From an uncultured Eubacteriales bacterium (GTDB lineage Bacteria; Acidobacteriota; Aminicenantia; Aminicenantales; Saccharicenantaceae), in assembly GCA_964574895.1 (NCBI GenBank), contig CAZNPB010000001.1:82665-146664 (forward strand): 64,000 bases of DNA. Reading direction: 5' to 3'. How positions within the stretch are numbered: position 1 is the first letter of the stretch; every line of letters begins with the position of its first letter. Shown here piece after piece: positions 24,030-36,835 of this stretch. The translations under genes were made by a program, and so were the position numbers. The notes below the pieces were generated by a model. That model had not been told where the DNA came from. It saw nothing but the letters and a program-made list of their open reading frames with translations, and did no database searches.

Positions 24030-24185
24030 GTCATTCCTGATCGGCAGAGTTTGAGGGCGCTGTGGTCATCATCGGGATCATGTCCTTTTATAACAGGCCC
24101 GGACGGAACGGTCAACCGGCGGTAGTGGGTCAGTTTGAAAAAGGAAAGACTAGACAACGGGGATAGCGGATGTTATATTTAGGGT

Positions 24186-24413
24186 ATGCAAGAACGCTCA
24201 AGCAAGGACACGAAGGACATAAACCAGCTGGCGGCCTCGATAGTAGATCAAGCAACGGGCCAGGAAAGGCCCAAGAACCCCGCCGCTGTGGCCCTTGGGA
24301 AGCTCGGGGGCCTAAAAGGCGGCAGGGCCAGGGCAGAGAAGCTATCCCCCGAGAAGCGGCGGAGAATAGCCAAGAAGGCGGCCGCGGCAAGGTGGGGGAA
24401 GCCTCGCCCCTAG
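24186..24413 (+). CDS. small basic protein (75 aa) with GG(K/R)ARA...AAAARW motif, unknown function
   Basis: The C-terminus LGKLGGLKGGRARAEKLSPEKRRRIAKKAAAARW matches a motif I have repeatedly seen in small phage- or plasmid-borne proteins. It lies at the left edge of the AT-richer islet. The Shine-Dalgarno site is weak. Confidence 0.45.
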   Translation: MQERSSKDTKDINQLAASIVDQATGQERPKNPAAVALGKLGGLKGGRARAEKLSPEKRRRIAKKAAAARWGKPRP

Positions 24414-24460
24414 GGGCTATTGACTTTAGCAAACTTAAGGGATATTTATAGGGCGTCTAA

Positions 24461-24545
24461 TGGGCGGCACGAGATTCGAACTCGTAAGAGGCTACGCCTC
24501 GCTACCGTGCAAGAGTAGTGCGTATGCCGATTTCGCCAGCCGCCC
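24461..24545 (-). tRNA. class II (long variable arm, Leu-type D arm, A73) tRNA with anticodon UGC (alanine codon GCA)
   Basis: The reverse complement is GGGCGGCTGGCGAAATCGGCATACGCACTACTCTTGCACGGTAGCGAGGCGTAGCCTCTTACGAGTTCGAATCTCGTGCCGCCCA (85 nt). It folds with a 7-bp acceptor, a 3-bp D stem with a GG loop, anticodon arm CTACT/CTTGCAC/GGTAG, variable arm GAGGC-GTA-GCCTC, and T arm ACGAG/TTCGAAT/CTCGT. No CCA is encoded, which is also true of the native tRNA-Arg. Confidence 0.8.
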
Positions 24546-24560
24546 ACTAGGCGTCCAAAG

Positions 24561-24650
24561 TGCGGAGGGAGCAGGAATCGAACCTGTTGCCCGGGCAGAG
24601 CAAAGGAGTTTATAGGACTCCCGCCACTACCAAGTGGCCCCTCCCTCCGC
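24561..24650 (-). tRNA. non-canonical tRNA-like gene (tRNASec/allo-tRNA-type cloverleaf), anticodon loop CCUAUAA (UAU if read conventionally)
   Basis: The 90-nt reverse complement is GCGGAGGGAGGGGCCACTTGGTAGTGGCGGGAGTCCTATAAACTCCTTTGCTCTGCCCGGGCAACAGGTTCGATTCCTGCTCCCTCCGCA. It has a 9-10 bp acceptor, a 6-bp D stem with a 4-nt loop, a 5-6 bp anticodon stem, a 6-bp variable arm and a 4-bp T stem with a GGTTCGATTCC core. It lies 15 nt upstream of the other tRNA. Confidence 0.65.
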
Positions 24651-24662
24651 GCTTTCTTTTTT

Positions 24663-25067
24663 TCAAAACGATGGAAAATCATCCGCTTTCGGATACTCCT
24701 CTTTCTCAACTAAATCGTATGTCCCCTTGCCGACCCGCTTGAATATATCCCGGTGAAGGCTCAGGGTGGCCGTCATGGTAGCCCCCTGGTCCTTCGCCCC
24801 CTCAAATTTCTCGGCCCCGGTTTCAATTAGCCGAGATATGATCTCCTTGTAGTGCATGGGCCTTCCCGCTTCTCTCAAAACGGCGATGGTCTTCTGAACC
24901 CTCCCCGCCGACGCCGGTTCGGTCTTTGTCCTCCCCGGTTCTTTCCCCTCTGCCCTGGCGTAGTCCAGGCGGACCCTTTCCAGGGCGGAAATCCGGCGGT
25001 CTAGGGATTCCCGTTCTCTGGTGAGTTTCTTGATTTCCCGCTCAATCTGACTCAGGAAACTAGCCAT
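24663..25067 (-). CDS. coiled-coil + HARE-HTH domain protein (134 aa)
   Basis: ATG at 25067 with GGAGG 5 nt upstream. The N-terminus looks coiled-coil (IEREIKKLTRERESLDRRISALE). The C-terminus IAVLREAGRPMHYKEIISRLIE...ATMTATLSLHRDIFKRVGKGTYDL fits the HARE-HTH (RpoE-delta/restriction-associated) pattern. Confidence 0.6.
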   Translation of the reverse strand: MASFLSQIEREIKKLTRERESLDRRISALERVRLDYARAEGKEPGRTKTEPASAGRVQKTIAVLREAGRPMHYKEIISRLIETGAEKFEGAKDQGATMTATLSLHRDIFKRVGKGTYDLVEKEEYPKADDFPSF

Positions 25068-25100
25068 TTTCGCCTCCGCAATAATTCCCCGGATGGCATT

Positions 25101-25129
25101 ATGATAGCAATTGCGGATTGCCTTGTCAA
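25101..25129 (-). promoter_or_regulatory. near-consensus sigma70 promoter for the HARE-HTH/tRNA unit
   Basis: Read on the minus strand: TTGACA (25129-25124), a 17-nt spacer, then TATCAT (25106-25101). It lies about 30 nt upstream of the Shine-Dalgarno site and ATG. Confidence 0.55.
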
Positions 25130-25226
25130 GTTGTGAAATGCGAATTATTCGCCGTATAGTTAACATAATAAATTGATAAAATTATGTAAACCACAAATAA
25201 TATCTATTGCGAATTGTAGAAAATGC

Positions 25227-25255
25227 TTGACAATGCTTGAGCGGTCATGTATTAT
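25227..25255 (+). promoter_or_regulatory. near-consensus sigma70 promoter for the transposase (probably a leaderless transcript)
   Basis: TTGACA (25227-25232), a 17-nt spacer, then TATTAT (25250-25255). The ATG at 25262 lies 6 nt after the -10 box and has no Shine-Dalgarno site. Confidence 0.55.
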
Positions 25256-25261
25256 ATAGGC

Positions 25262-26104
25262 ATGAATCAGCTGAGCAAGGATAAGCGCGTTGCTGTTATC
25301 TCTGCCTTGGTAGAGGGGAATTCGATCAGGGCCACCAGCCGGATTACGGGGGTAGCCAAGGGGACGGTCTTGAAGCTCCTCCGCGATGTCGGCAGGGCTT
25401 GTGCCGAATACCAATGGGGAACCATTAAAGATATCGCTTGCCACCGGGTCCAATGCGATGAGATTTGGTCTTTCTGCTACGCCAAAGAGAAGAATGTTCC
25501 CAAAGACAAGAAGGGCGTATTTGGATTCGGCGATGTTTATACATGGACGGCGATCTGTGCTGAATCCAAACTGATTTTAAGTTGGTTCGTGGGGAGGCGT
25601 GATGCGATCTCGGCCCATTGGTTTATCAAGGACGTAGCCTCCCGCCTCAAGAATCGCGTCCAGCTGACAACGGACGGCCACAAGGTCTATCTAGAGGCCG
25701 TCGAGGCCGCCTTTGGCGCGGATATTGATTACGCCATGCTGGTGAAGATATACGGCGGAGAGGACAAGGAGGGGGCCGTCAGGTATAGCCCCGCTCCGTT
25801 TATTGACCAAATAAAAACCGGGATTATCGGGAACCCTGACCCCAAGCATATCTCTACCAGCTATGTAGAGCGGCAGAATCTTACCATGCGGATGAACATG
25901 AGGAGATTCACCCGTCTTACTAATGGGTTCTCAAAGAAGGTTGAAAACCTGGAATACGCCGTAGCCCTGCACTTTATGTATTACAATTTCTGTCGAATCC
26001 ACCAGACGTTACGGGTTACGCCCGCTATGGAGGCGAGGATTACAGATCACGTTTGGGATATTGGGGATATCTTAAGCTTGATGAATGTTTCGCAAATCGA
26101 ATGA
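25262..26104 (+). CDS. IS1-family DDE transposase (single ORF)
   Basis: N-terminal HTH (NSIRATSRITGVAKGTV). Catalytic-region motifs CDEIWSF, TDGHKVY and ERQNLTMRMNMRRFTRLTNGFSKK are characteristic of IS1-family transposases. Confidence 0.8.
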   Translation: MNQLSKDKRVAVISALVEGNSIRATSRITGVAKGTVLKLLRDVGRACAEYQWGTIKDIACHRVQCDEIWSFCYAKEKNVPKDKKGVFGFGDVYTWTAICAESKLILSWFVGRRDAISAHWFIKDVASRLKNRVQLTTDGHKVYLEAVEAAFGADIDYAMLVKIYGGEDKEGAVRYSPAPFIDQIKTGIIGNPDPKHISTSYVERQNLTMRMNMRRFTRLTNGFSKKVENLEYAVALHFMYYNFCRIHQTLRVTPAMEARITDHVWDIGDILSLMNVSQIE

Positions 26105-26898
26105 TTAAGCCGGTCATTTGCCAAGCGGATCGCTTCCAATTCTTCTTTTTTTAACCTTTCCGGTCGCGACCCCGGCTGAATGGTGGCAAGGCGAATCTCT
26201 CCGCCCACGGCAGTATTCGTGGCGGCGGTTTCGGCTATCATTCTATAGGCCAGGAGGGACGCCCTCTCCCTGGAGAGAGATTCATCAAAATGCCTCATGC
26301 TGAGATATTGGACATTTTCTCCGTGGCCAGAAAAGGCCGGTGATTTACCCTGGGGGGCTGGATGGAATCCCTCCGCGCTGTCTAGGGAGTATATTACTGG
26401 CTCCTCGTTCTTATAGCCAGCCAAAAGAATAGCTAGGCCGGGTTGCTGAAGGCCAGAACCAAAGGGGAACCACTCTTGATATGAGCCAGAAAAAAGACGC
26501 CAAATTTCTGAGGCGGCCTCATCTATGGTCTGAAAGTTGCCTCGCAATTTCTCGTCGTGCTTCCTCAGAAGGCCCATGCCAGTATTCCCTCGTCCCGCCA
26601 TGCCCAGTATATAGCTGTCGTACAGGAATAATTTTTCAGCGCCGTCTAAAAACTGATTCTTGGGGTTCAATTCCCGGCTATCGCTCCCCATAACAATAGC
26701 CCCTTGGGCCTTAATCCCGACAACGAGGGTCATGTCTTGGTTCACCCAGGATATATCTTCGCTAATACTATTTCCGCCATCGCCCCGTGTCAACAAGATG
26801 TTCTCGCCGCGATCACCGGCGCGGCACCCGGATTCAAACTGACCCATTACCCAACCGGCCCTCCCCTCCCCCGATGAGGCGGCCAGGGGGAATTTCAC
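26047..26898 (-). CDS. proteasome beta-subunit / HslV-like Ntn threonine hydrolase (orphan)
   Basis: Counting from the internal MT at 26733, the sequence is TLVVGIKAQGAIVMGSDSRELNPKNQFLDGAEKLF. This places Thr1, Asp17 and Lys33 at canonical proteasome spacing. Later matches include LLAGY..EEPVIYSLD and FSGHG. The start is either GTG 26898 (giving a 55-aa propeptide) or ATG 26733 (Thr exposed after Met removal). The last 19 codons overlap the 3' end of the transposase gene. Confidence 0.7.
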   Translation of the reverse strand: MKFPLAASSGEGRAGWVMGQFESGCRAGDRGENILLTRGDGGNSISEDISWVNQDMTLVVGIKAQGAIVMGSDSRELNPKNQFLDGAEKLFLYDSYILGMAGRGNTGMGLLRKHDEKLRGNFQTIDEAASEIWRLFSGSYQEWFPFGSGLQQPGLAILLAGYKNEEPVIYSLDSAEGFHPAPQGKSPAFSGHGENVQYLSMRHFDESLSRERASLLAYRMIAETAATNTAVGGEIRLATIQPGSRPERLKKEELEAIRLANDRLNHSICETFIKLKISPISQT

Positions 26899-29626: not shown

Positions 29627-30025
29627 TTATTCGGCCTTGGCCGGCTCGGCCTTCTTCTCTTCGGCTTTCTTCTTGGCGGGCTTGGCCTCGCCCTTGGCGC
29701 CTTCGGCCTTCGGCTTCTTGGCCTTGCCTTCCGCCGGCGCGCTCTTCTTCTGGGCCTTGGCGCCCTCGTCCTTGGGCTTCTTGGGGGCGGCGGCCTTCTC
29801 GGCCTTGATCCGGGCCATCTCCTCGGTCCGCTTCCCGATCTCGGCGATGCGGGCCAGGCGGCGGTTGACGGCCTTGACCGAGGCCTTCAGGCTCCGGACG
29901 ATGGGGTCGCGGTCGGTCTGCGGGGCGGCGACGCCTTTGCCGGCCAGGAGCGCCAGCCTGTCCTTGAGCTTCTGTTCGAACGCCGCTTTCTGGCGGGTGA
30001 CGATCTCTTTCCTCATGATGCCCAT
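29627..30025 (-). CDS. Lys/Ala-rich histone-H1-like / nucleoid-type small basic protein (132 aa)
   Basis: ATG at 30025 with GGAGG 5 nt upstream. The C-terminal half is made of AKKP/KAEG-type low-complexity repeats (KAEKAAAPKKPKDEGAKAQKKSAPAEGKAKKPKAEGAKGEAKPAKKKAEEKKAEPAKAE). Confidence 0.6.
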   Translation of the reverse strand: MGIMRKEIVTRQKAAFEQKLKDRLALLAGKGVAAPQTDRDPIVRSLKASVKAVNRRLARIAEIGKRTEEMARIKAEKAAAPKKPKDEGAKAQKKSAPAEGKAKKPKAEGAKGEAKPAKKKAEEKKAEPAKAE

Positions 30026-30185
30026 GTGGTCCTCCGTGAGAGTCTCTCGAGGGCCGGAAAGCTCGTTCCGGCTTTGTTCTTGACGCTCTTTTATAGCAGG
30101 AATCCGGCCAAAAAGCCACAAGAAGCGTCGCCGCGGCTCAACGGGGACGAGGAAAAAGAAGATCGCACCCGGTGTGACTCGAAAG

Positions 30186-30200
30186 GGCGCGATTACCGCC
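30186..30200. repeat. GC-rich 15-nt motif, copy 1 (GGCGCGATTACCGCC)
   Basis: Lies 3' of propeller paralog 1. Consensus is GGCGCGAT-NN-CCGCC, with GGCG/CGCC dyad ends. Confidence 0.5.
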
Positions 30201-30270
30201 GTTCTTCGTAACCGCATATGCTTAACGGGACGTCCGACTTGAAAATCAGAAAGATGTCGGTGCCATTTTC

Positions 30271-31389
30271 CTAATATTTCCACACGACAGAATAGCGCTT
30301 CACGACCTCATAGCCTTCGTCATCGGCTTCGACGGTGTATAACTTGTTGCCTTTGAGAATGGTCGGCGTCGGGTTGATGAGATCGGGATGGGCGTTTAGT
30401 GGGAGCTGTCCGATAAACCGTCCTTCAGCATCATAAACGTCGTGAATGTCTTGTCTGCCGTTTGGAGTACGCTCCCAGGTCTGCACGAAGAGTCTGCCGT
30501 GATCATCGCCGAAAAAACTGCGAAAGGCCGCATGAACCGAGGGGCAAGGGAATCTCGGCGGGGCGGATGATCCCGGCGGGTTGGATCGCTTCAGGTATAT
30601 CTTCCTATCTTCATCCGTCACTTTGGCTGGTTCATATTCCCGGCGGATCCTTTTGACTTCCTTAAAATGTCTATCATAGAGAGAGATTTCATAGGTTTTG
30701 GGATATCCGAAGATCAGTTGGTCTTGAGGATCAAGGATCCAAAACTCCCGTGGCGAATATAAGTTCAAATCGGGGGGCTGGGGAATGGTGGCTATATCGG
30801 CAAGGACCGTCGCCATGTCAGAGCCGAAAATGCGATAAACAACCCGTCTTTCACGAGGGTCACGAATGCTGAGATAAACGTTTCCCCGTCCGTCGGCGAA
30901 TCCCGAAGAAAGGAAGCCCTTGGTCGCTATGTTCTTTTTAAATCGCCCTTGAAGATCGAATACGACCAGCTTGCCGATATCACCGACGACGAGTTCCTGT
31001 CTCTCCTGGCTGATGGTGATAGAATCCACCAAGCTCAGTTCACCCGGCCCTTGTCCTCCTCGGCCGATCGTCCTTATATATGCACCGGCTTTGTCAAAAA
31101 CCTTAATGCATGATCGCTGAAGATCACCGACGTAAATATTGCCCTCGTTATCGACGGCAATTCTCCAAGCCCTGGAAAATACGGCTTCTCCCTGAGCTTT
31201 TGCCCCACCCAAAGCCAAGTCCTCTTTGAGGATCAGAATCGGTTCCTTGTAGATTGGCTCTCGTGGATTCAGGACGATCGTGACATCGCCCTCTTTGACG
31301 ATCTTGCCCTTCCACTTGAGCTGAGCGGCGGAGGTGGCCATTAAAGCCAATAGGAGGATGGCTGCGGCAATTCCCTTGCTCTTTTTCAT
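30271..31389 (-). CDS. 6-bladed beta-propeller (NHL-like) family protein, paralog 1, secreted
   Basis: MKKSKGIAAAILLLALMATSAAQ signal peptide. GGQGPGEL motif. C-terminal KGNKLYTVE..GYEVVKRY is shared with the neighbouring genes. AT-richer codon use. Confidence 0.8.
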   Translation of the reverse strand: MKKSKGIAAAILLLALMATSAAQLKWKGKIVKEGDVTIVLNPREPIYKEPILILKEDLALGGAKAQGEAVFSRAWRIAVDNEGNIYVGDLQRSCIKVFDKAGAYIRTIGRGGQGPGELSLVDSITISQERQELVVGDIGKLVVFDLQGRFKKNIATKGFLSSGFADGRGNVYLSIRDPRERRVVYRIFGSDMATVLADIATIPQPPDLNLYSPREFWILDPQDQLIFGYPKTYEISLYDRHFKEVKRIRREYEPAKVTDEDRKIYLKRSNPPGSSAPPRFPCPSVHAAFRSFFGDDHGRLFVQTWERTPNGRQDIHDVYDAEGRFIGQLPLNAHPDLINPTPTILKGNKLYTVEADDEGYEVVKRYSVVWKY

Positions 31390-31441
31390 GTATGACCCCC
31401 TTTGTCTCCTTTGCCCTGCTTCCGAGCGTCCTACTAGATAA

Positions 31442-31456
31442 GGCGCGATCACCGCC
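31442..31456. repeat. GC-rich 15-nt motif, copy 2 (GGCGCGATCACCGCC)
   Basis: Part of a 30-nt block (31441-31470) with 25/30 identity to 32649-32677. It lies immediately 3' of paralog 2. Confidence 0.55.
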
Positions 31457-31468
31457 CTTAACCTGCGT

Positions 31469-32614
31469 CTAATTGATCAATCGGGCCCAGCTGGGGAGCC
31501 CCGACAGTGAATAGCGAACCAGCTCCAGGGTTTCGGTCTCGGTCGGAACAAGCACATACAATCCATGGTCATGAAGGGTCAGAGGCGCATAGCTGAGCCG
31601 CATCCACTCGAGCCCTCGGGGTAAGGGGAGCATCAGGGATCCCAGGAAGGAGCCTTTCAAGTCATAGATATCGATTCGGGCGAGCCGCCGCGCCTCATCG
31701 AAGGTCGAGGTAAGGACCCAGATCCTCCCGTTCAGGACCCAAATCCTCAGCACGTCGTCCAGCGTCTCATGTTCGAAGGATTTGACCTCGCTCCCGCTCA
31801 GCGTCAGACTGGGCGCGTAGAACTTATCTCGGGGCGACTTCCATTCGGGCCGAATCTTGACCTTCGGATAGTCCCGGCTGATGAAGGGCGAGATCTCCAT
31901 CCGGCCCAGGTCCAGGCGTCGAATGTCGTAGCCCCCGTTATCCGCGATAAGGAATGTCGATTCATCGGCTCTGGCGATCTGAACGTAGCACACGTTCTTG
32001 AGATAGCTCGTATCGCGGACAAAATAGCGCTTGGGGAACCAGGGGCCTTCCGTGCGGGCTTCCGCGTCGCCGGGCGCGGCGGACAACAGACGCACCGGGA
32101 CATCAAGGAACGTCGCTTGCCCGCCAGTATTCTGGAAAAATTCGCGGAAAAAGAAGAAGCGCCCGTCCCGGCCGCCGAGCAGACCGGCATGTCCGAGCGT
32201 CGAGGGCATCGATGCTTCCTGCAGGACGTTTCCCTCGCGGCCGAAGATGATCATCTTGTTCGGATTCCGGTTGAAAACGAGAACGCGGTCGTTTTCCGGG
32301 ATAAATCCGGCGAGATCGCTCAGCTCTCCAGGTCCCTGGCCTCTCTTGAAGAAATTGCGCAAGAATCTCCCCTGAGGAGAGAAAAGGAGCAACTGTCCTT
32401 CGTCGGCGACCCAGACAAAGCCGCGCTCGTCGATCTGGGGCGGATCGGGAGAGGAAAAATAGAAGGCGCCGGGCCGGTCGACGACCCGCCACGTCTCCTC
32501 CAGAACGACAACAGGGACTTTATCTGCGCCGGGGATACCATTGCCTAGACAAAGAAAGGCAAGGAAGGAGCATGCCCCAGTCCGGACGATACTCTGCCAT
32601 CTTGATTCTCGCAA
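31469..32614 (-). CDS. 6-bladed beta-propeller family protein, paralog 2
   Basis: RGQGPGELS motif and family-wide colinearity. Only a TTG start (32614) is available, so the start is uncertain. Confidence 0.7.
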   Translation of the reverse strand: MRESRWQSIVRTGACSFLAFLCLGNGIPGADKVPVVVLEETWRVVDRPGAFYFSSPDPPQIDERGFVWVADEGQLLLFSPQGRFLRNFFKRGQGPGELSDLAGFIPENDRVLVFNRNPNKMIIFGREGNVLQEASMPSTLGHAGLLGGRDGRFFFFREFFQNTGGQATFLDVPVRLLSAAPGDAEARTEGPWFPKRYFVRDTSYLKNVCYVQIARADESTFLIADNGGYDIRRLDLGRMEISPFISRDYPKVKIRPEWKSPRDKFYAPSLTLSGSEVKSFEHETLDDVLRIWVLNGRIWVLTSTFDEARRLARIDIYDLKGSFLGSLMLPLPRGLEWMRLSYAPLTLHDHGLYVLVPTETETLELVRYSLSGLPSWARLIN

Positions 32615-32649
32615 TATTCTCTCTCTCCCAGGAACGTCTCTCGCTATGA

Positions 32650-32664
32650 GGCGCGATATCCGCC
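32650..32664. repeat. GC-rich 15-nt motif, copy 3 (GGCGCGATATCCGCC)
   Basis: Lies immediately 3' of paralog 3. See copies 1 and 2. Confidence 0.55.
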
Positions 32665-32683
32665 CTGACCGGCGTCTCGGTAG

Positions 32684-33859
32684 CTACTCCCATTTCATTT
32701 TATAAACTGTTAGCGCCACGTAGCCGCTGTCCTTTTCTCTGAGGCAGTAGAGGTGGTCGCCCTTCGCAAGAACCCCCAGAGGACTGGCACTGTATCTTCC
32801 GCCATCGACGTACTGAATCCGGACGTTATCGAGCTGGAACCTTCCGATGAATACGCCGCCGTTTGTGAAGATATCGTACCAATACTCGCGTTCCCCTTCC
32901 CACTCGTTGCTCATGACGTATAGACGGCCTTGATCGTCTGCGAACAGAAAGCGGAAAGGTGGCAGATACGTTGCCCAGTCAAGCTTGTTCAGCATCTCCT
33001 GCCCGTGGGTGACGCGGCTCATGACCTTCACGAGAAGCTCTTTATATTGCTCGGGAACAGGGACGGGGCGATATTCCTTGCGGAGCTTCCTCACGAGTCT
33101 CCCGGAGAAATCGAAGACGGAGATCTCGTAGCCCCCCGTAGAGTCCCCGACGAAAATGCGGTCGTTTGAAGCGCCAACGATTAATGCCCCGCCGACTGGT
33201 CTCCAACGGGGAGCCTTCAGCGCATCTTCAAACTCATAAGTGTAGAATTCCCGATTCTCGGTAAGAGCATCGTTAGAAATGTAATAGTGATTCCTGAGCA
33301 CAGGTTCCGCTGGGTCCTGTTCCTGCCACCAGGTCAGGTACTTGTTGCTGCCCAAATATTGCCCAAGCGAAATATTCTTGCTGAGCTTTGTCTCTTGAAG
33401 TAGGAGGCCTTCTCCGCTGAAGGCATAGAACTCCTTCTTGGTCATGTCTTTGGCGAGAACGCGGTTCTGCTCATCGATCAAGATATCCCCGCCCCAGTCG
33501 AACTCACCGGGTCCCTGACCCTTACGCCCGAAGGACATCAGGAACTTCCCCGATTTATCGAATTTATAGATAAAATTCTCGGGACTCTGCCGCATCATGC
33601 AATAGATGTTTCCGTCGCGGTCCAGGCAAAATGACTCGATCATGGTCAAGCCTGTCTGCACGATGCTGTCTTTCTCGGTGTCGATGGAAAAGACCTCCTC
33701 GAGTTTGAGGGTGGAAGGCACGCCCGGAAGAGAATAGGGCTCGACATGATTGACAATGACCTCGACCCCGTCTTCGATGATCTTGTCGACCTGGGACTGT
33801 TTGGCTTTACAGGACACGAGGAGAGCAATGGCCAGAAAACAAGCAGGTATTTTCCTCAT
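32684..33859 (-). CDS. 6-bladed beta-propeller family lipoprotein, paralog 3
   Basis: Lipobox LLVSC. KGQGPGEF motif. C-terminal KGDHLYCLREKDSGYVALTVY. Confidence 0.8.
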   Translation of the reverse strand: MRKIPACFLAIALLVSCKAKQSQVDKIIEDGVEVIVNHVEPYSLPGVPSTLKLEEVFSIDTEKDSIVQTGLTMIESFCLDRDGNIYCMMRQSPENFIYKFDKSGKFLMSFGRKGQGPGEFDWGGDILIDEQNRVLAKDMTKKEFYAFSGEGLLLQETKLSKNISLGQYLGSNKYLTWWQEQDPAEPVLRNHYYISNDALTENREFYTYEFEDALKAPRWRPVGGALIVGASNDRIFVGDSTGGYEISVFDFSGRLVRKLRKEYRPVPVPEQYKELLVKVMSRVTHGQEMLNKLDWATYLPPFRFLFADDQGRLYVMSNEWEGEREYWYDIFTNGGVFIGRFQLDNVRIQYVDGGRYSASPLGVLAKGDHLYCLREKDSGYVALTVYKMKWE

Positions 33860-34030
33860 CTCTGCCGTTCCCCTTGGATAACCCGATTATTGATCAGCTC
33901 CGTCCGGAATACAATCCCTCTCCCCGTCCGATTCTGGGGCCCTATATCCTCCTTGGGAAGGGTCTCTCTATATGCCTCGCAATACCCGCACCAATCGGCG
34001 ATCATGGAGCCGGGTCCCATGATCAGGACC

Positions 34031-35221
34031 TCACTTCCACATCATTCGATAGGCTACAAGCTCCTTATAGCCGCTGGGTTTTTCGCGGATGGCATAGAGA
34101 CGGTTCTTCTTGGAAATGATCCACGAGTCCATCGGACTGCCTGGCGCAAAAGGATCGGCTGAGAGGTAAGCGTTAACGCTCGTCCTGGCAAAGAATATTC
34201 CCTCAGGAGTGAAGATGTCGAAGATGTATTCCCCCGGTTTCTCTCCGGCTTCATAGGTCATGACGAACAATCGTCCTCTGTCATCACAAAAAAGGTGCTG
34301 AAAAGGAGGGCTGGCCTTGGGAAAATCCAGCTTGGCCTTGAGAGAAGAAAGCTGGGGGGAATCAAGCGCCTTGAGTATTCCCTGTCTCTTACTCTCCGGG
34401 AAAGGCGCTTCGACGAATTCTTTCCTAATCTTTCCAACAAGATTTCCGCTCTGGTCATAGACACGGATTTCATAGCCCTTGTCGGGATTCCCCAAATAGA
34501 TCCGGTCCCGCGCCACAGCCCAGCAAGTGAGCGAATAAGGAATCTGGATCTTCGAGACACCGAACGGATGTGGTAAAACGACCCGATCGAGCTCGCAAAT
34601 GTTCCGTAACTCACGGTCGATCAGGGAATATCCCATGACAAGGCCTGGAAATCCTTTACCCGCCTCCAATCCGGTCTTTCGGTAGAGATTGTTCCCGGAA
34701 GCTAATTGAAGAAGAAGGAAGCCGCCTTTGATATCGAGAGGCAATTCGGCCTCTCGCAAAATGGCGCCATGTTGGTCAAAGACAAAGAGCTTCTTCGTCA
34801 TCATATCCATTAAGGAGAGTTCTTCATCGACAGTAATCCTTTGGTAGATCGGCCATTGGATCTCACCCGGTCCCTGGCCTTTCGGGGCAAAAGACCTAAG
34901 AAATCGTCCCGACGCATCGAATTGGGAAATGAATGTACCATTGCTCAGCGGAGACTGGTAAACATAGATGTCGCCCAGAGAAGTCACATCAAAACCCCAG
35001 ATATCGACAATACCCTTTTCGGCTAGATCAGAACGCTCCGTGTCGATTGAGAATTCCCGTTCCAAGGACAGGGACAAAGGCGCTCCCTCAACAAGATATG
35101 GCTGGGTGTGATTGACAATGATTTCAACGCCATTCTCGACTATCCTATCGACTTGAGCATGTTGGGATCTACAGGAAACAAGTAGAGCGATTGGCACAAG
35201 GAAAGCGGCTAACCTCTTCAT
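34031..35221 (-). CDS. 6-bladed beta-propeller family lipoprotein, paralog 4
   Basis: Lipobox LLVSC. KGQGPGEI motif. C-terminal KKNRLYAIREKPSGYKELVAY. GGGAGAGGG Shine-Dalgarno site. Confidence 0.8.
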   Translation of the reverse strand: MKRLAAFLVPIALLVSCRSQHAQVDRIVENGVEIIVNHTQPYLVEGAPLSLSLEREFSIDTERSDLAEKGIVDIWGFDVTSLGDIYVYQSPLSNGTFISQFDASGRFLRSFAPKGQGPGEIQWPIYQRITVDEELSLMDMMTKKLFVFDQHGAILREAELPLDIKGGFLLLQLASGNNLYRKTGLEAGKGFPGLVMGYSLIDRELRNICELDRVVLPHPFGVSKIQIPYSLTCWAVARDRIYLGNPDKGYEIRVYDQSGNLVGKIRKEFVEAPFPESKRQGILKALDSPQLSSLKAKLDFPKASPPFQHLFCDDRGRLFVMTYEAGEKPGEYIFDIFTPEGIFFARTSVNAYLSADPFAPGSPMDSWIISKKNRLYAIREKPSGYKELVAYRMMWK

Positions 35222-35366
35222 CTCGGCCCTCTCCCAATAGTCACGCCCTCAACGAGCCTAATGTCCGGTTCTTCTCTTTTCGCGCGAGCCCATTCCGTTC
35301 TCCGCATTAGCCGAGCCCAGGATTTACAGAGCCACCCCGCTCGAATCCTGTTCTTCGTCTCGGGCA

Positions 35367-36518
35367 TTAGAAACCGAAGCTCACGGAATACCTGACGATA
35401 GACGGAAATCCGGCCTCATCCTGTTCGACAGTGTAGAATTTCCCGCCTTTCCACAACATTGGCTTCTCGATGAGTGCTGTAAATGGGTGGCGGATCATAG
35501 CGATATAGCGGCCTTCTTGATCAAAGACATCGAAGACCGTCTTCCTCTCCTTGCTCGGATCATCCGCTATACTGGAGAAGGAAAGGACGAAAAGCCGCCC
35601 CGAATCATCACATTTCACGACACGATAAGGAGGATGGAACCGAGGGAATTCGAGATGGATGGGATCGGACGGATTTCGCTTCTTATGCTCGTTGACGATC
35701 GCTTGTTTTTCTTCATCGGCAACAGGATTGGGATCCCAGTCCTTGAGTATCCTCTTCTGCAAGTGCCCTCGGGCGTCGAATATTCGTATCTCATATCCTT
35801 CGGTCGGACAGCCATAAACGAGCCGATCGTCGGGCATCACCGCGAAAGACATGATTGGATCGAAGATACTCACTCTTTTGGGATCAGGCATCGGCAGCGG
35901 CCACGTCGCGAGAACTGCGGCTTCTTCCGTCCTGCTGTCGAGACGGGACAACTTGAAACCGGGGGGCTCCATGGAAAAATCCATGATGTAATACACGCCC
36001 TTGGAATCGTAGTCCACTTTGATGGGAGAGAAGGCCTTGAGCAAATACTGCCTCAGATATAGTCCGTCCGGAGCGAAATATTCAATACTCCTATTTCCTT
36101 CGCAAGTAACCATGGTCTCGCCGTTCGAGCTGACGTGAAGGTTGCCGGCGCCGCTGAATTCGCCGGGACCCTGCCCTGGACGACCTACTGTCCTTAAGAA
36201 ACGGCCATTTCTGTCGAACACTCGGACGTCATCACCTTTGAGGTCGATAGCGTAGATACTGCCGTCGTCGCCCACGGCGAGATCTGTGATCTCCGTAAAC
36301 AAGTATTCCTGATCCCCTTCGGGCGCGCCGATCTTTAGATCTTGGACGATTTTGATTTCCGCGTTTTCATACAAGGGGTTCTTTGGATTGCTGACTATAA
36401 CAACGCCATCCTTCTCGGTAATCGTGCCTTCCCACGCGCCCCTATTTCCCCCACAAGCAGCGCAGGCCCATAGAAGAAGAATCGTAGCCCGCCATCCGAC
36501 GGAGTGCTTGAATGCCAT
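35367..36518 (-). CDS. 6-bladed beta-propeller family lipoprotein, paralog 5
   Basis: Lipobox-like LLWACAAC. PGQGPGEF motif. C-terminal KGGKFYTVEQDEAGFPSIVRY. Confidence 0.8.
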   Translation of the reverse strand: MAFKHSVGWRATILLLWACAACGGNRGAWEGTITEKDGVVIVSNPKNPLYENAEIKIVQDLKIGAPEGDQEYLFTEITDLAVGDDGSIYAIDLKGDDVRVFDRNGRFLRTVGRPGQGPGEFSGAGNLHVSSNGETMVTCEGNRSIEYFAPDGLYLRQYLLKAFSPIKVDYDSKGVYYIMDFSMEPPGFKLSRLDSRTEEAAVLATWPLPMPDPKRVSIFDPIMSFAVMPDDRLVYGCPTEGYEIRIFDARGHLQKRILKDWDPNPVADEEKQAIVNEHKKRNPSDPIHLEFPRFHPPYRVVKCDDSGRLFVLSFSSIADDPSKERKTVFDVFDQEGRYIAMIRHPFTALIEKPMLWKGGKFYTVEQDEAGFPSIVRYSVSFGF

Positions 36519-36698
36519 CGCCCACCCCCTATTCTGAATACGCCCGACTGGCCTCCAAATCCCTCTCGATTTCGGTTAATTGGAATATTAACATCGCAGA
36601 CCTTCAAAAGCCAATCTCCCGCCGCTGTTGGAATCGAAATGAGAAAGAATTAAGAGGCGTGACCGATAAAGGTATGAAAATAAAGAGGAATAGGAGAG

Positions 36699-36772
36699 CG
36701 CGCCCGGGGTGACTCGAACACCCGACCTGCTGATTCGTAGTCAGACGCTCTATCCAACTGAGCTACGGGCGC
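36699..36772 (-). tRNA. tRNA-Arg (anticodon ACG), canonical class I
   Basis: The reverse complement is GCGCCCGTAGCTCAGTTGGATAGAGCGTCTGACTACGAATCAGCAGGTCGGGTGTTCGAGTCACCCCGGGCGCG. It has a 7/5 acceptor/T branch and anticodon loop CTACGAA. No CCA is encoded. Confidence 0.9.
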
Positions 36773-36835
36773 GCAGGGCGGAAAAGCGGGGATAATATAA
36801 CCGAAATCGACCGGCTTTGCAACGGGCCGGCGGCG

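Follow-up and report, generated by a model that had tools for sequence, protein, structure and literature searches.

The subject of this analysis is a tRNA gene in a 64,000-nucleotide stretch of DNA (contig CAZNPB010000001.1, positions 82,665–146,664; hereafter the window) that combines the alanine anticodon UGC with a body of apparent leucine type, and that lies within an IS1-family transposon. The gene is 85 nt long and occupies positions 24461–24545 on the minus strand, with all stems and invariant tertiary nucleotides intact. ARAGORN called three tRNA genes in the window, two of which are minus-strand neighbours, namely tRNA-Ala(tgc) at 24460–24546 and tRNA-Ile(tat) at 24562–24645. The Rfam tRNA model (RF00005) matched 24461–24545 on the same strand over its full length with 48.7 bits (gathering score 29, E = 2.3e-7), and a custom model (R1) gave 90.7 bits. 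Together with a direct reading of the minus strand, these searches bear out the first-pass annotation of this DNA, which had described a well-formed class II tRNA with anticodon UGC. Its worry that a hand-derived reverse complement might have altered the anticodon loop is also settled, as the loop reads CUUGCAC, and we regard the observation as confirmed.

The tRNA has the 7/5 architecture of class II. The acceptor stem is GGGCGGC/GCCGCCC, which places a G:C pair at 3:70, and is followed by U8, G9 and a 3-bp D stem (GCG/CGC) enclosing the D loop AAAUCGGCAUA. The anticodon stem (CUACU/GGUAG, 5 bp) closes a 7-nt loop with U33, the anticodon UGC at 24509–24511, and A37. The variable region (C-GAGGC-GUA-GCCUC-UU) is 16 nt long with a 5-bp stem, and is followed by the T arm ACGAG-UUCGAAU-CUCGU and the discriminator A73. 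On the acceptor stem, D stem, variable arm, T arm, A73 and G3:C70 the earlier description was accurate; the likeness it saw to the D arm of Escherichia coli tRNA-Leu also stands, although a recount gives 15 matches in 20 positions rather than the 16 quoted. No CCA end is encoded, and a host tRNA-Arg is likewise without one, so that the missing CCA in the transposon tRNAs is no obstacle to function.

The minimum free energy (MFE) fold of the single sequence did not reproduce the cloverleaf, and covariance models and covariation were therefore used for this tRNA instead. Across seven class II UGC tRNAs, in four of which the search pattern itself dictated the D stem and the anticodon, 98.8% of stem cells are paired and compensatory changes occur in 20 of 24 pairs. 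None of 500 shuffles scored as well, and no register shift came close.

To define the identity of the tRNA body, we compared it with the elements recognised by leucyl-tRNA synthetase (LeuRS). In E. coli these are A73, the A15:U48 Levitt pair, G18G19, A20a and the tertiary pairs that join the D loop to the T loop, with U8:A14 demonstrated as a determinant for the Aquifex enzyme; LeuRS is indifferent to the anticodon and to the sequence of the variable arm, while G73 of tRNA-Ser acts as an anti-determinant against it (PMC9976931). The identity set of that review is complete in the UGC tRNA, which has A73, A15:U48, G18G19, A20a, U8:A14 and, in the T loop, U54, U55, C56 and A58. A single unpaired nucleotide (U) separates the variable stem from U48. 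Work by Asahara and Himeno reportedly established that such an orientation of the variable arm, with one unpaired base before U48, is of the leucine type.

Measured against tRNA-Leu, the gene thus has the class II form, 3-bp D stem and arm orientation, and is without a leucine anticodon (NAG or YAA). Against tRNA-Ala, it has an NGC anticodon and A73, and is without the class I short variable loop and G3:U70, the latter being absent from all eight class II UGC tRNAs found. Against tRNA-Ser, it lacks G73, the Ser-type D arm and a position 48 free of an unpaired base; its sole Ser-leaning feature is G2:C71, which is favourable to seryl-tRNA synthetase (SerRS). A scan for its combined D-arm and T-arm pattern, taking one genome per species, found at least 120 loci, and among the matches listed 120 of 120 were canonical tRNA-Leu(GAG). 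The 259 reference tRNAs drawn from these listed loci gave a leucine tRNA as the nearest relative (67 of 85 positions), with serine and alanine tRNAs at 53–54. The anticodon loop departs from this pattern: it has the form YUUGCAN with A37 (and C38 in the window copy), which copies the loop of tRNA-Ala(UGC). As judged by these sequence elements, the body is of leucine type and not of alanine, serine or tyrosine type.

The same leucine-body UGC tRNA is present in four lineages of the element, in which the stems carry compensatory changes and UGC is unchanged. The route to three of these (the window and the loci L012 and L273) was the protein and not any tRNA sequence, which makes them unbiased cases. 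Their UGC tRNAs differ from one another at 8–15% of positions, with double changes at C4:G69 (to U4:A69) and G2:C71 (to A2:U71), and UGC and A37 are kept in all three. This retention, together with the compensatory changes, makes a pseudogene very unlikely and answers the concern of the first-pass annotation on this point. In these three lineages, which also encode a HARE-HTH protein, the UGC tRNA is paired with an allo-tRNA of anticodon UAU; in the fourth, L143, its partner is a different tRNA.

In the window, the partner is an 8/4 allo-tRNA(UAU) at 24562–24648 on the minus strand, identified by the Rfam tRNA-Sec model (54.4 bits, gathering score 47), the MFE fold and ARAGORN. The gap between the two tRNAs is 16–18 nt, depending on the end chosen for the neighbour; a close neighbouring tRNA had been noted at the outset, with the gap put at 15 nt. 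In the MFE fold of the allo-tRNA, the acceptor stem has 8 bp, the D stem 6 bp and a tetraloop, the anticodon stem 6 bp and the T stem 4 bp, and the variable arm is long, matching the 8/4 allo-tRNA architecture of PMC5389517, whereas the UGC tRNA (7/5, 3-bp D stem) does not. The allo-tRNA loop, CCUAUAA, has C33 in place of the near-universal U33 and otherwise copies the tRNA-Ile loop CUNAUAA; given this likeness, the allo-tRNA may be charged by isoleucyl-tRNA synthetase via its anticodon.

Upstream of the allo-tRNA, with its stop codon 14 nt away, is a gene for a 134-residue HARE-HTH protein with a coiled-coil N-terminus (24663–25067, minus strand; Pfam PF05066, E = 7e-8). The exact 134-residue product is called on four assemblies, and its homologues, which are 25–66% identical and all lie within the same module, always precede a tRNA pair. 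The minus-strand order is therefore HARE-HTH gene, allo-tRNA(UAU), UGC tRNA, and the three are probably co-transcribed. A sigma-70-like promoter motif (TTGACA-17-TATCAT with a TG; 25101–25129, minus strand) lies upstream of this operon, as a motif match only (11 of 12 positions in a consensus scan).

Both tRNAs lie within extended helices. The 5′ leader of the UGC tRNA (24546–24556) pairs with its 3′ trailer (24451–24460), both on the minus strand, and lengthens the acceptor helix by about 9 bp in the window and by 8–10 bp across the window, L012, L143 and L273, as seen in folds of all four and in covarying flanks; the allo-tRNA is likewise enclosed in a leader/trailer helix (inverted repeat I6). 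Beyond the trailer is a second promoter-like motif, TTGACW-17-TATnnA, conserved in an alignment of six elements (A4) and oriented antisense toward the tRNA genes. The window copy (TTGACT-17-TATTTA; 24420–24448, plus strand) lies between the terminator-like hairpin of a small open reading frame (ORF) and the 3′ end of the UGC tRNA. Its function is a prediction: it could drive an RNA across both tRNAs and the HARE-HTH gene, and such an arrangement, with the leader/trailer helix, would fit a harmful RNA held under tight control as well as a role outside translation. The order of an Ile-codon reader followed by an Ala UGC reader is also that of tRNA-Ile and tRNA-Ala in the spacers of bacterial rRNA operons, and both pairs sit within long helices resembling processing stems, a likeness that may be coincidence.

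The operon is carried by a 2,731-bp transposon (24121–26851) with 52% GC, compared with 69% in the flanks, so that the earlier placing of the tRNA in mobile DNA was well founded. The element is bounded by 19-bp terminal inverted repeats, the left being GGTAGTGGGTCAGTTTGAA (24121–24139, plus strand; 0 matches expected by chance) and the right differing by one mismatch (26833–26851, minus strand; repeat search). An 8-bp target-site duplication, CAACCGGC, is perfect in its left (24113–24120) and right (26852–26859) copies. Elements of the family are bounded by the sequence GGTAGTGGGTCAGTTTGA. The same terminal repeats, each set with its own perfect 8-bp duplication and unrelated flanking DNA, occur in L012, L005, L008 and L143, which with the window gives five independent insertions; in L010 and L273, the module and one terminal repeat are on the contig. 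In a collection of viral contigs the terminal repeat was found in at least 120 stretches, with 32 paired elements of 0.6–4.8 kb, of which 15 have clean 8-bp duplications.

The transposon contains, in order, a small basic ORF (plus strand), the UGC tRNA, allo-tRNA and HARE-HTH gene (minus strand), the transposase (plus strand) and a proteasome-beta-like ORF (minus strand). The small ORF (24186–24413, 75 residues, from the ORF list) is convergent with the tRNAs and is a backbone gene present in all elements; it is 57% identical to a Mesorhizobium loti plasmid protein annotated as 'histone H1'. Searches of PADLOC, NCBIfam and Protein Data Bank sequences gave no function for this protein or for the HARE-HTH protein. 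The transposase (25262–26104) is a probable IS1-family DDE enzyme, 55–57% identical by tblastn to annotated IS1 family transposases on alphaproteobacterial plasmids; the NCBIfam IS1 model scored 54 bits (cut-off 100), the Pfam IS1 model fell below its cut-off and Pfam DDE matches were weak. The last ORF (26047–26847) encodes a proteasome-beta-like Ntn hydrolase (Pfam PF00227, E = 6e-6; TIGR03634 weak), and its start codon lies within the right terminal repeat; sister elements have a DUF2299 or NYN-domain nuclease gene in this slot.

A copy on the M. loti plasmid CP050295.1 (L149, 796–4165) has identical terminal repeats and the small 'histone H1' ORF, with an XRE/M78-peptidase gene and a hypothetical gene in the cargo slot instead of tRNAs, and provides a useful tRNA-less comparator. 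No tRNA was found by ARAGORN or Rfam in the related plasmid IS1 copies, blastn of the tRNA pair against plasmids gave no match, and neither did two tRNA patterns searched against viral contigs. At L231 (1289–1552) and L259 (1235–1395), ordinary tRNA-Leu genes of the host stand no more than 2 bp and 78 bp away from an insertion of this IS family; three tandem Leu-like matches in L231 and one in L259 were rejected as cargo on this account, and the proximity may reflect coincidence or a target preference. Elsewhere in the window, a second low-GC island (30000–36800, about 50–58% GC) ends exactly at the 3′ side of a tRNA-Arg(ACG) gene (36698–36772) and contains a run of paralogous DUF5128/NHL beta-propeller genes; it looks like a genomic island integrated at a tRNA.

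The tRNA pairs of related elements all show disagreement between body and anticodon. In the window, L012 and L273, the first tRNA is the allo-tRNA(UAU) and the second the leucine-body UGC tRNA. In L143 (455–636, minus strand), the leucine-body UGC tRNA comes first and is followed by a class I tRNA with G3:U70, A73 and the anticodon UAG, so that a leucine-type body reads GCA and an alanine-type body reads CUA, on paper a reciprocal swap of leucine and alanine. The remaining pairs are an allo-tRNA(UAG) with a G3:U70 body bearing UGG (L005), an allo-like tRNA with a G3:U70 body bearing UAU (L008), and an allo-tRNA(UAG) with a G3:U70 body bearing CAA (L010). Further leucine-type bodies, from other loci with the same terminal repeats, have the proline anticodon UGG (L165, 4994–5076, minus strand, in a 1,128-bp mini-element without transposase and with a target-site duplication) and the ochre anticodon UUA (L254, 10817–10900, plus strand, class II, with paired repeats and no clean 8-bp duplication); the latter is a potential natural nonsense suppressor. 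Of the same set of loci, L170 has a canonical-looking tRNA-Ala body with GUC, and L214 and L206 have Ser-type class II bodies with GAG and CAA, respectively. In L174, a leucine-type body with UCC lies just outside the only repeat found there.

A metagenome scan for a leucine D arm plus UUGCA gave four more class II UGC tRNAs (L142, L146, L147 and L148); on inspection of the sequences, two adjoin G3:U70 tRNA-like genes and one adjoins an IS1595 transposase. Three other matches (L140, L141 and L145) were discarded as apparent tRNA-Leu(UAA) genes with group I introns, as read from the sequence; the introns begin with GCA and interrupt the tRNA after U34, a chance mimicry of the search pattern. 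L138 and L144 were discarded as they are not tRNAs.

Cargo tRNAs with a non-cognate anticodon use three scaffolds: G3:U70/A73 (alanine type), class II with A73 (leucine type), and allo or class II with G73 (serine type). LeuRS, alanyl-tRNA synthetase (AlaRS) and SerRS are the three anticodon-blind synthetases. That the scaffolds coincide with these three identities suggests selection to stay chargeable, and is the strongest indirect argument for it; the restriction argues for a role that would need aminoacylation, most simply decoding.

We then considered which codons are at stake. Host codon usage, counted over 26 reading frames (12,430 codons, with G+C at third positions about 0.9), is almost devoid of the codons read by the cargo: GCA is 2 of 1,430 Ala codons, AUA 5 of 522 Ile codons, CUA 2 of 1,290 Leu codons and CCA 10 of 752 Pro codons. 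GCG makes up 19% of host Ala codons, which would be at risk too if U34 wobbles. The three conserved genes of the element contain four GCA and eight AUA codons. When four element protein families were aligned across elements with different tRNA cargo, GCA and AUA fell at columns where Ala and Ile, respectively, are conserved, and recoding of the element's own genes was therefore rejected. GCA is somewhat rarer in the UGC-bearing elements (16 of 139 Ala codons, compared with 28 of 145); the difference falls short of significance (p = 0.07), and GC content confounds it. The codon pattern can be read as low toxicity to the host, as selective harm to foreign DNA, or as attempted codon supply. The pair in L143, where a leucine body reads an Ala codon and an alanine body a Leu codon, argues against simple codon supply.

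The reading we favour, at about even confidence and on the grounds of identity rules and comparative logic, is that the UGC tRNA is charged with leucine and reads alanine codons, and so would act as a natural missense tRNA. A leucine-type tRNA would have gained the whole anticodon loop of tRNA-Ala(UGC) and become cargo of an IS1-family transposon. Transcription of all three genes would start at the promoter that precedes the HARE-HTH gene; the UGC tRNA would be cut from its precursor with paired leader and trailer, and CCA would be added post-transcriptionally, as the host tRNA-Arg requires. LeuRS would then charge the tRNA with no regard to the anticodon, and AlaRS would not, since G3:U70 is absent. 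Leucine would be inserted at GCA and, subject to how U34 is modified, perhaps also at GCG or GCU; with GCA nearly absent from host genes, most targets would lie in lower-GC DNA within the cell, the element's own genes included. The first-pass annotation had predicted a missense tRNA charged with leucine or serine: the leucine-type body, the lack of G3:U70 and the mobile setting hold by sequence and comparison, and its interpretation is partly supported.

Several observations weigh against this reading. Translation of GCA as leucine would damage the element's own proteins, whose genes have GCA where Ala, and AUA where Ile, is conserved. In E. coli, no suppression was seen from six allo-tRNA(UAU) species after conversion to CUA, and two irregular G-1 tRNA1 species from similar polycistrons were charged and not used in translation (PMC5389517). 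A leader/trailer helix of this length is unusual for a bacterial pre-tRNA that is efficiently processed, and one family member, L273, has C33 instead of U33 in its UGC tRNA. Lastly, G2:C71 replaces the C2:G71 anti-determinant against SerRS, and may allow some serine charging.

The main rival, which we consider possible and the less probable of the two, is that a conserved, tRNA-shaped and possibly charged RNA acts outside decoding. Candidate roles include a module for processing by RNase P or RNase III and for forming the 3′ end of the HARE-HTH mRNA; a regulatory or toxin–antitoxin-like RNA of the transposon; a decoy that draws anticodon nucleases, modification enzymes or other proteins recognising the tRNA-Ala(UGC) anticodon loop; and an aminoacyl donor that the near-absence of its codon from host genes keeps off the ribosome. 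The tight spacing (the UGC tRNA about 16 nt after the allo-tRNA, and the latter 14 nt after the ORF), the covarying leader and trailer helices of both tRNAs and the conserved antisense motif are all consistent with such a role, as are the negative tests of allo-tRNA(UAU), the charged and unused tRNAs of other cassettes (PMC5389517), and the contrast between two GCA codons in the host's 1,430 and the element's GCA at conserved Ala positions. Set against it, a processing signal or decoy has no need of the full LeuRS identity set, nor of a family restricted to three anticodon-blind scaffolds; the window copy retains U33, A37, the 7-nt loop and the 5-bp anticodon stem; a tandem of two tRNAs exceeds what a 3′-end signal needs; and the family has no conserved toxin or nuclease partner.

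That SerRS charges the tRNA, alone or beside LeuRS, through the long variable arm and G2:C71, giving a missense tRNA that inserts serine, is unlikely. The 5-bp variable stem, the G2:C71 pair in place of C2:G71 of E. coli tRNA-Leu and the Ser-like allo type of the neighbour would suit SerRS, whereas A73 rather than G73, the Leu-type D arm and the one unpaired base before U48 would not. Conversion of E. coli tRNA-Leu to serine identity took eight changes, according to a reference listed in PMC9976931.

A genuine alanine tRNA, recognised by AlaRS through a non-canonical route and decoding GCA for an AT-richer transposon in a host with third-position G+C of 0.9, is more improbable still. It would account for a loop that copies tRNA-Ala(UGC), for A73, which is common to tRNA-Ala, and for GCA at conserved Ala positions of the element in a host that almost never uses it; the codons read by the cargo anticodons of the HARE-HTH subfamily (UAU, UGC, UAG and UGG) all end in A and are scarce in GC-rich hosts. 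Yet G3:U70 occurs in none of the eight class II UGC tRNAs, sister elements put G3:U70 bodies under non-Ala anticodons, and L143 has the opposite of what codon supply would need. A hidden substitute for G3:U70, a G·U pair that three elements have in the leader/trailer helix two pairs past the acceptor stem, was considered and rejected, as it is A-U in L273.

The weakest alternative, a decaying tRNA-Leu copy with a drifted anticodon and carried as a passive passenger, is disfavoured and very unlikely: it fits the mobile setting and the known allo-tRNA(UAU) pseudogene in a transposon-related ORF (PMC5389517), but the stems are intact, compensatory changes run through four lineages whose proteins are only 25–66% identical, and UGC and A37 are unchanged, with UGC at least two substitutions from any leucine anticodon.

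It is very rare for a natural tRNA to uncouple anticodon from amino acid, and such tRNAs bear on how the genetic code changes and on deliberate mistranslation by cells or selfish elements. Leucine would be a third anticodon-blind scaffold beside the natural cases of serine and alanine (allo-tRNAs) and of proline (tRNAProX). The exact ends and target duplications define the vehicle, an IS1-family transposon, and so make the complete 2.7-kb unit open to cloning and testing; the mismatch of cargo anticodons and host codons yields concrete hypotheses (toxin, defence or codon supply); and genetic-code engineering has ready-made parts in the leucine-type UGC, UGG and ochre (UUA) variants. A bolder proposal, which we put forward as speculative and probably wrong, is that IS1-family cassettes of mis-wired, chargeable tRNAs with leucine, alanine and serine bodies form a codon-usage-selective translational weapon or addiction module. 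As host genes are essentially without GCA and AUA, only proteins encoded by lower-GC DNA (phages, plasmids and rival elements) would be corrupted, with the tRNAs restrained by a HARE-HTH regulator and by antisense transcription from the promoter-like motif. If true, this would amount to discrimination of self from non-self at the level of the genetic code.

Among known systems, the closest are the allo-tRNAs and irregular-tRNA polycistrons. Mukai et al. (2017) reported UAU as the commonest anticodon of the 8/4 allo-tRNA class, described polycistrons of allo-tRNA-like and irregular 7/5 tRNAs with a suspected link to transposable elements and toxin–antitoxin systems, noted non-cognate anticodons on tRNAs of serine or alanine identity, and found that some allo-tRNAs insert serine or alanine at the wrong codons in E. 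coli, those with leucine anticodons inserting serine and being toxic (PMC5389517). The window has the same arrangement, an allo-tRNA-like gene followed closely on the same strand by an irregular 7/5 tRNA, and the UGC tRNA shares with the allo-tRNAs a non-cognate anticodon, an anticodon-blind identity (as predicted from sequence) and mobile DNA. It differs in being a leucine-type class II tRNA of canonical 7/5 form rather than 8/4 or 9/3, and a leucine-identity scaffold is absent from the main text of PMC5389517. That paper only suspects an association with mobile elements, whereas the carrier here is an IS1-family element with terminal repeats and target duplications.

The tRNAProX and tRNAProA species of Streptomyces also mismatch body and anticodon, at alanine or other codons, in regulated mistranslation (PMC10404621; PMC11415595). 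Streptomyces tRNAProX is a chromosomal class I tRNA with a proline body and AGC anticodon, and has a dedicated paralogue, ProRSx, because prolyl-tRNA synthetase reads the anticodon (PMC10404621); the window element, by contrast, has a leucine-type body and no synthetase, and none should be needed. The yeast CUG reassignment tRNAs (tRNA-Ser(CAG) in Candida and tRNA-Ala(CAG) in Pachysolen) rest on the tolerance of Ser-, Ala- and Leu-type bodies for swapped anticodons, their synthetases being anticodon-blind, and some have an unusual residue 33 that tempers decoding; these systems are eukaryotic and genome-wide with adapted codon usage, whereas the window element's own genes are not recoded (PMC11415595, PMC6041473). 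No leucine-body tRNA with an alanine anticodon is mentioned for bacteria in a 2024 review of natural mistranslating tRNAs.

Canonical bacterial tRNA-Leu equals the UGC tRNA in architecture, in the LeuRS elements readable from sequence and in the D and T arms, and differs in having neither the tRNA-Ala loop (UGC, A37, C38), the transposon setting nor the paired leader and trailer. The vehicle resembles IS1 in terminal repeats that begin with GGT and in its 8-bp target duplication; its transposase is 55–57% identical to annotated IS1 family transposases and scores below the cut-offs of the IS1 models. Classical IS1, however, is 768 bp long with insA and insB joined by a frameshift, whereas this family spans 2.5–3.3 kb and has one transposase ORF plus a cargo slot that holds tRNA genes in the window subgroup and an XRE/M78 gene and no tRNA in the plasmid copies. 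The first-pass annotation had missed that the tRNA is one member of a transposon-borne, anticodon-swapped family, the allo-tRNA part of which is already published. The UGC tRNA belongs with the allo-tRNAs and irregular-tRNA polycistrons, to which it adds a canonical leucine-type scaffold and a delimited IS1-family vehicle.

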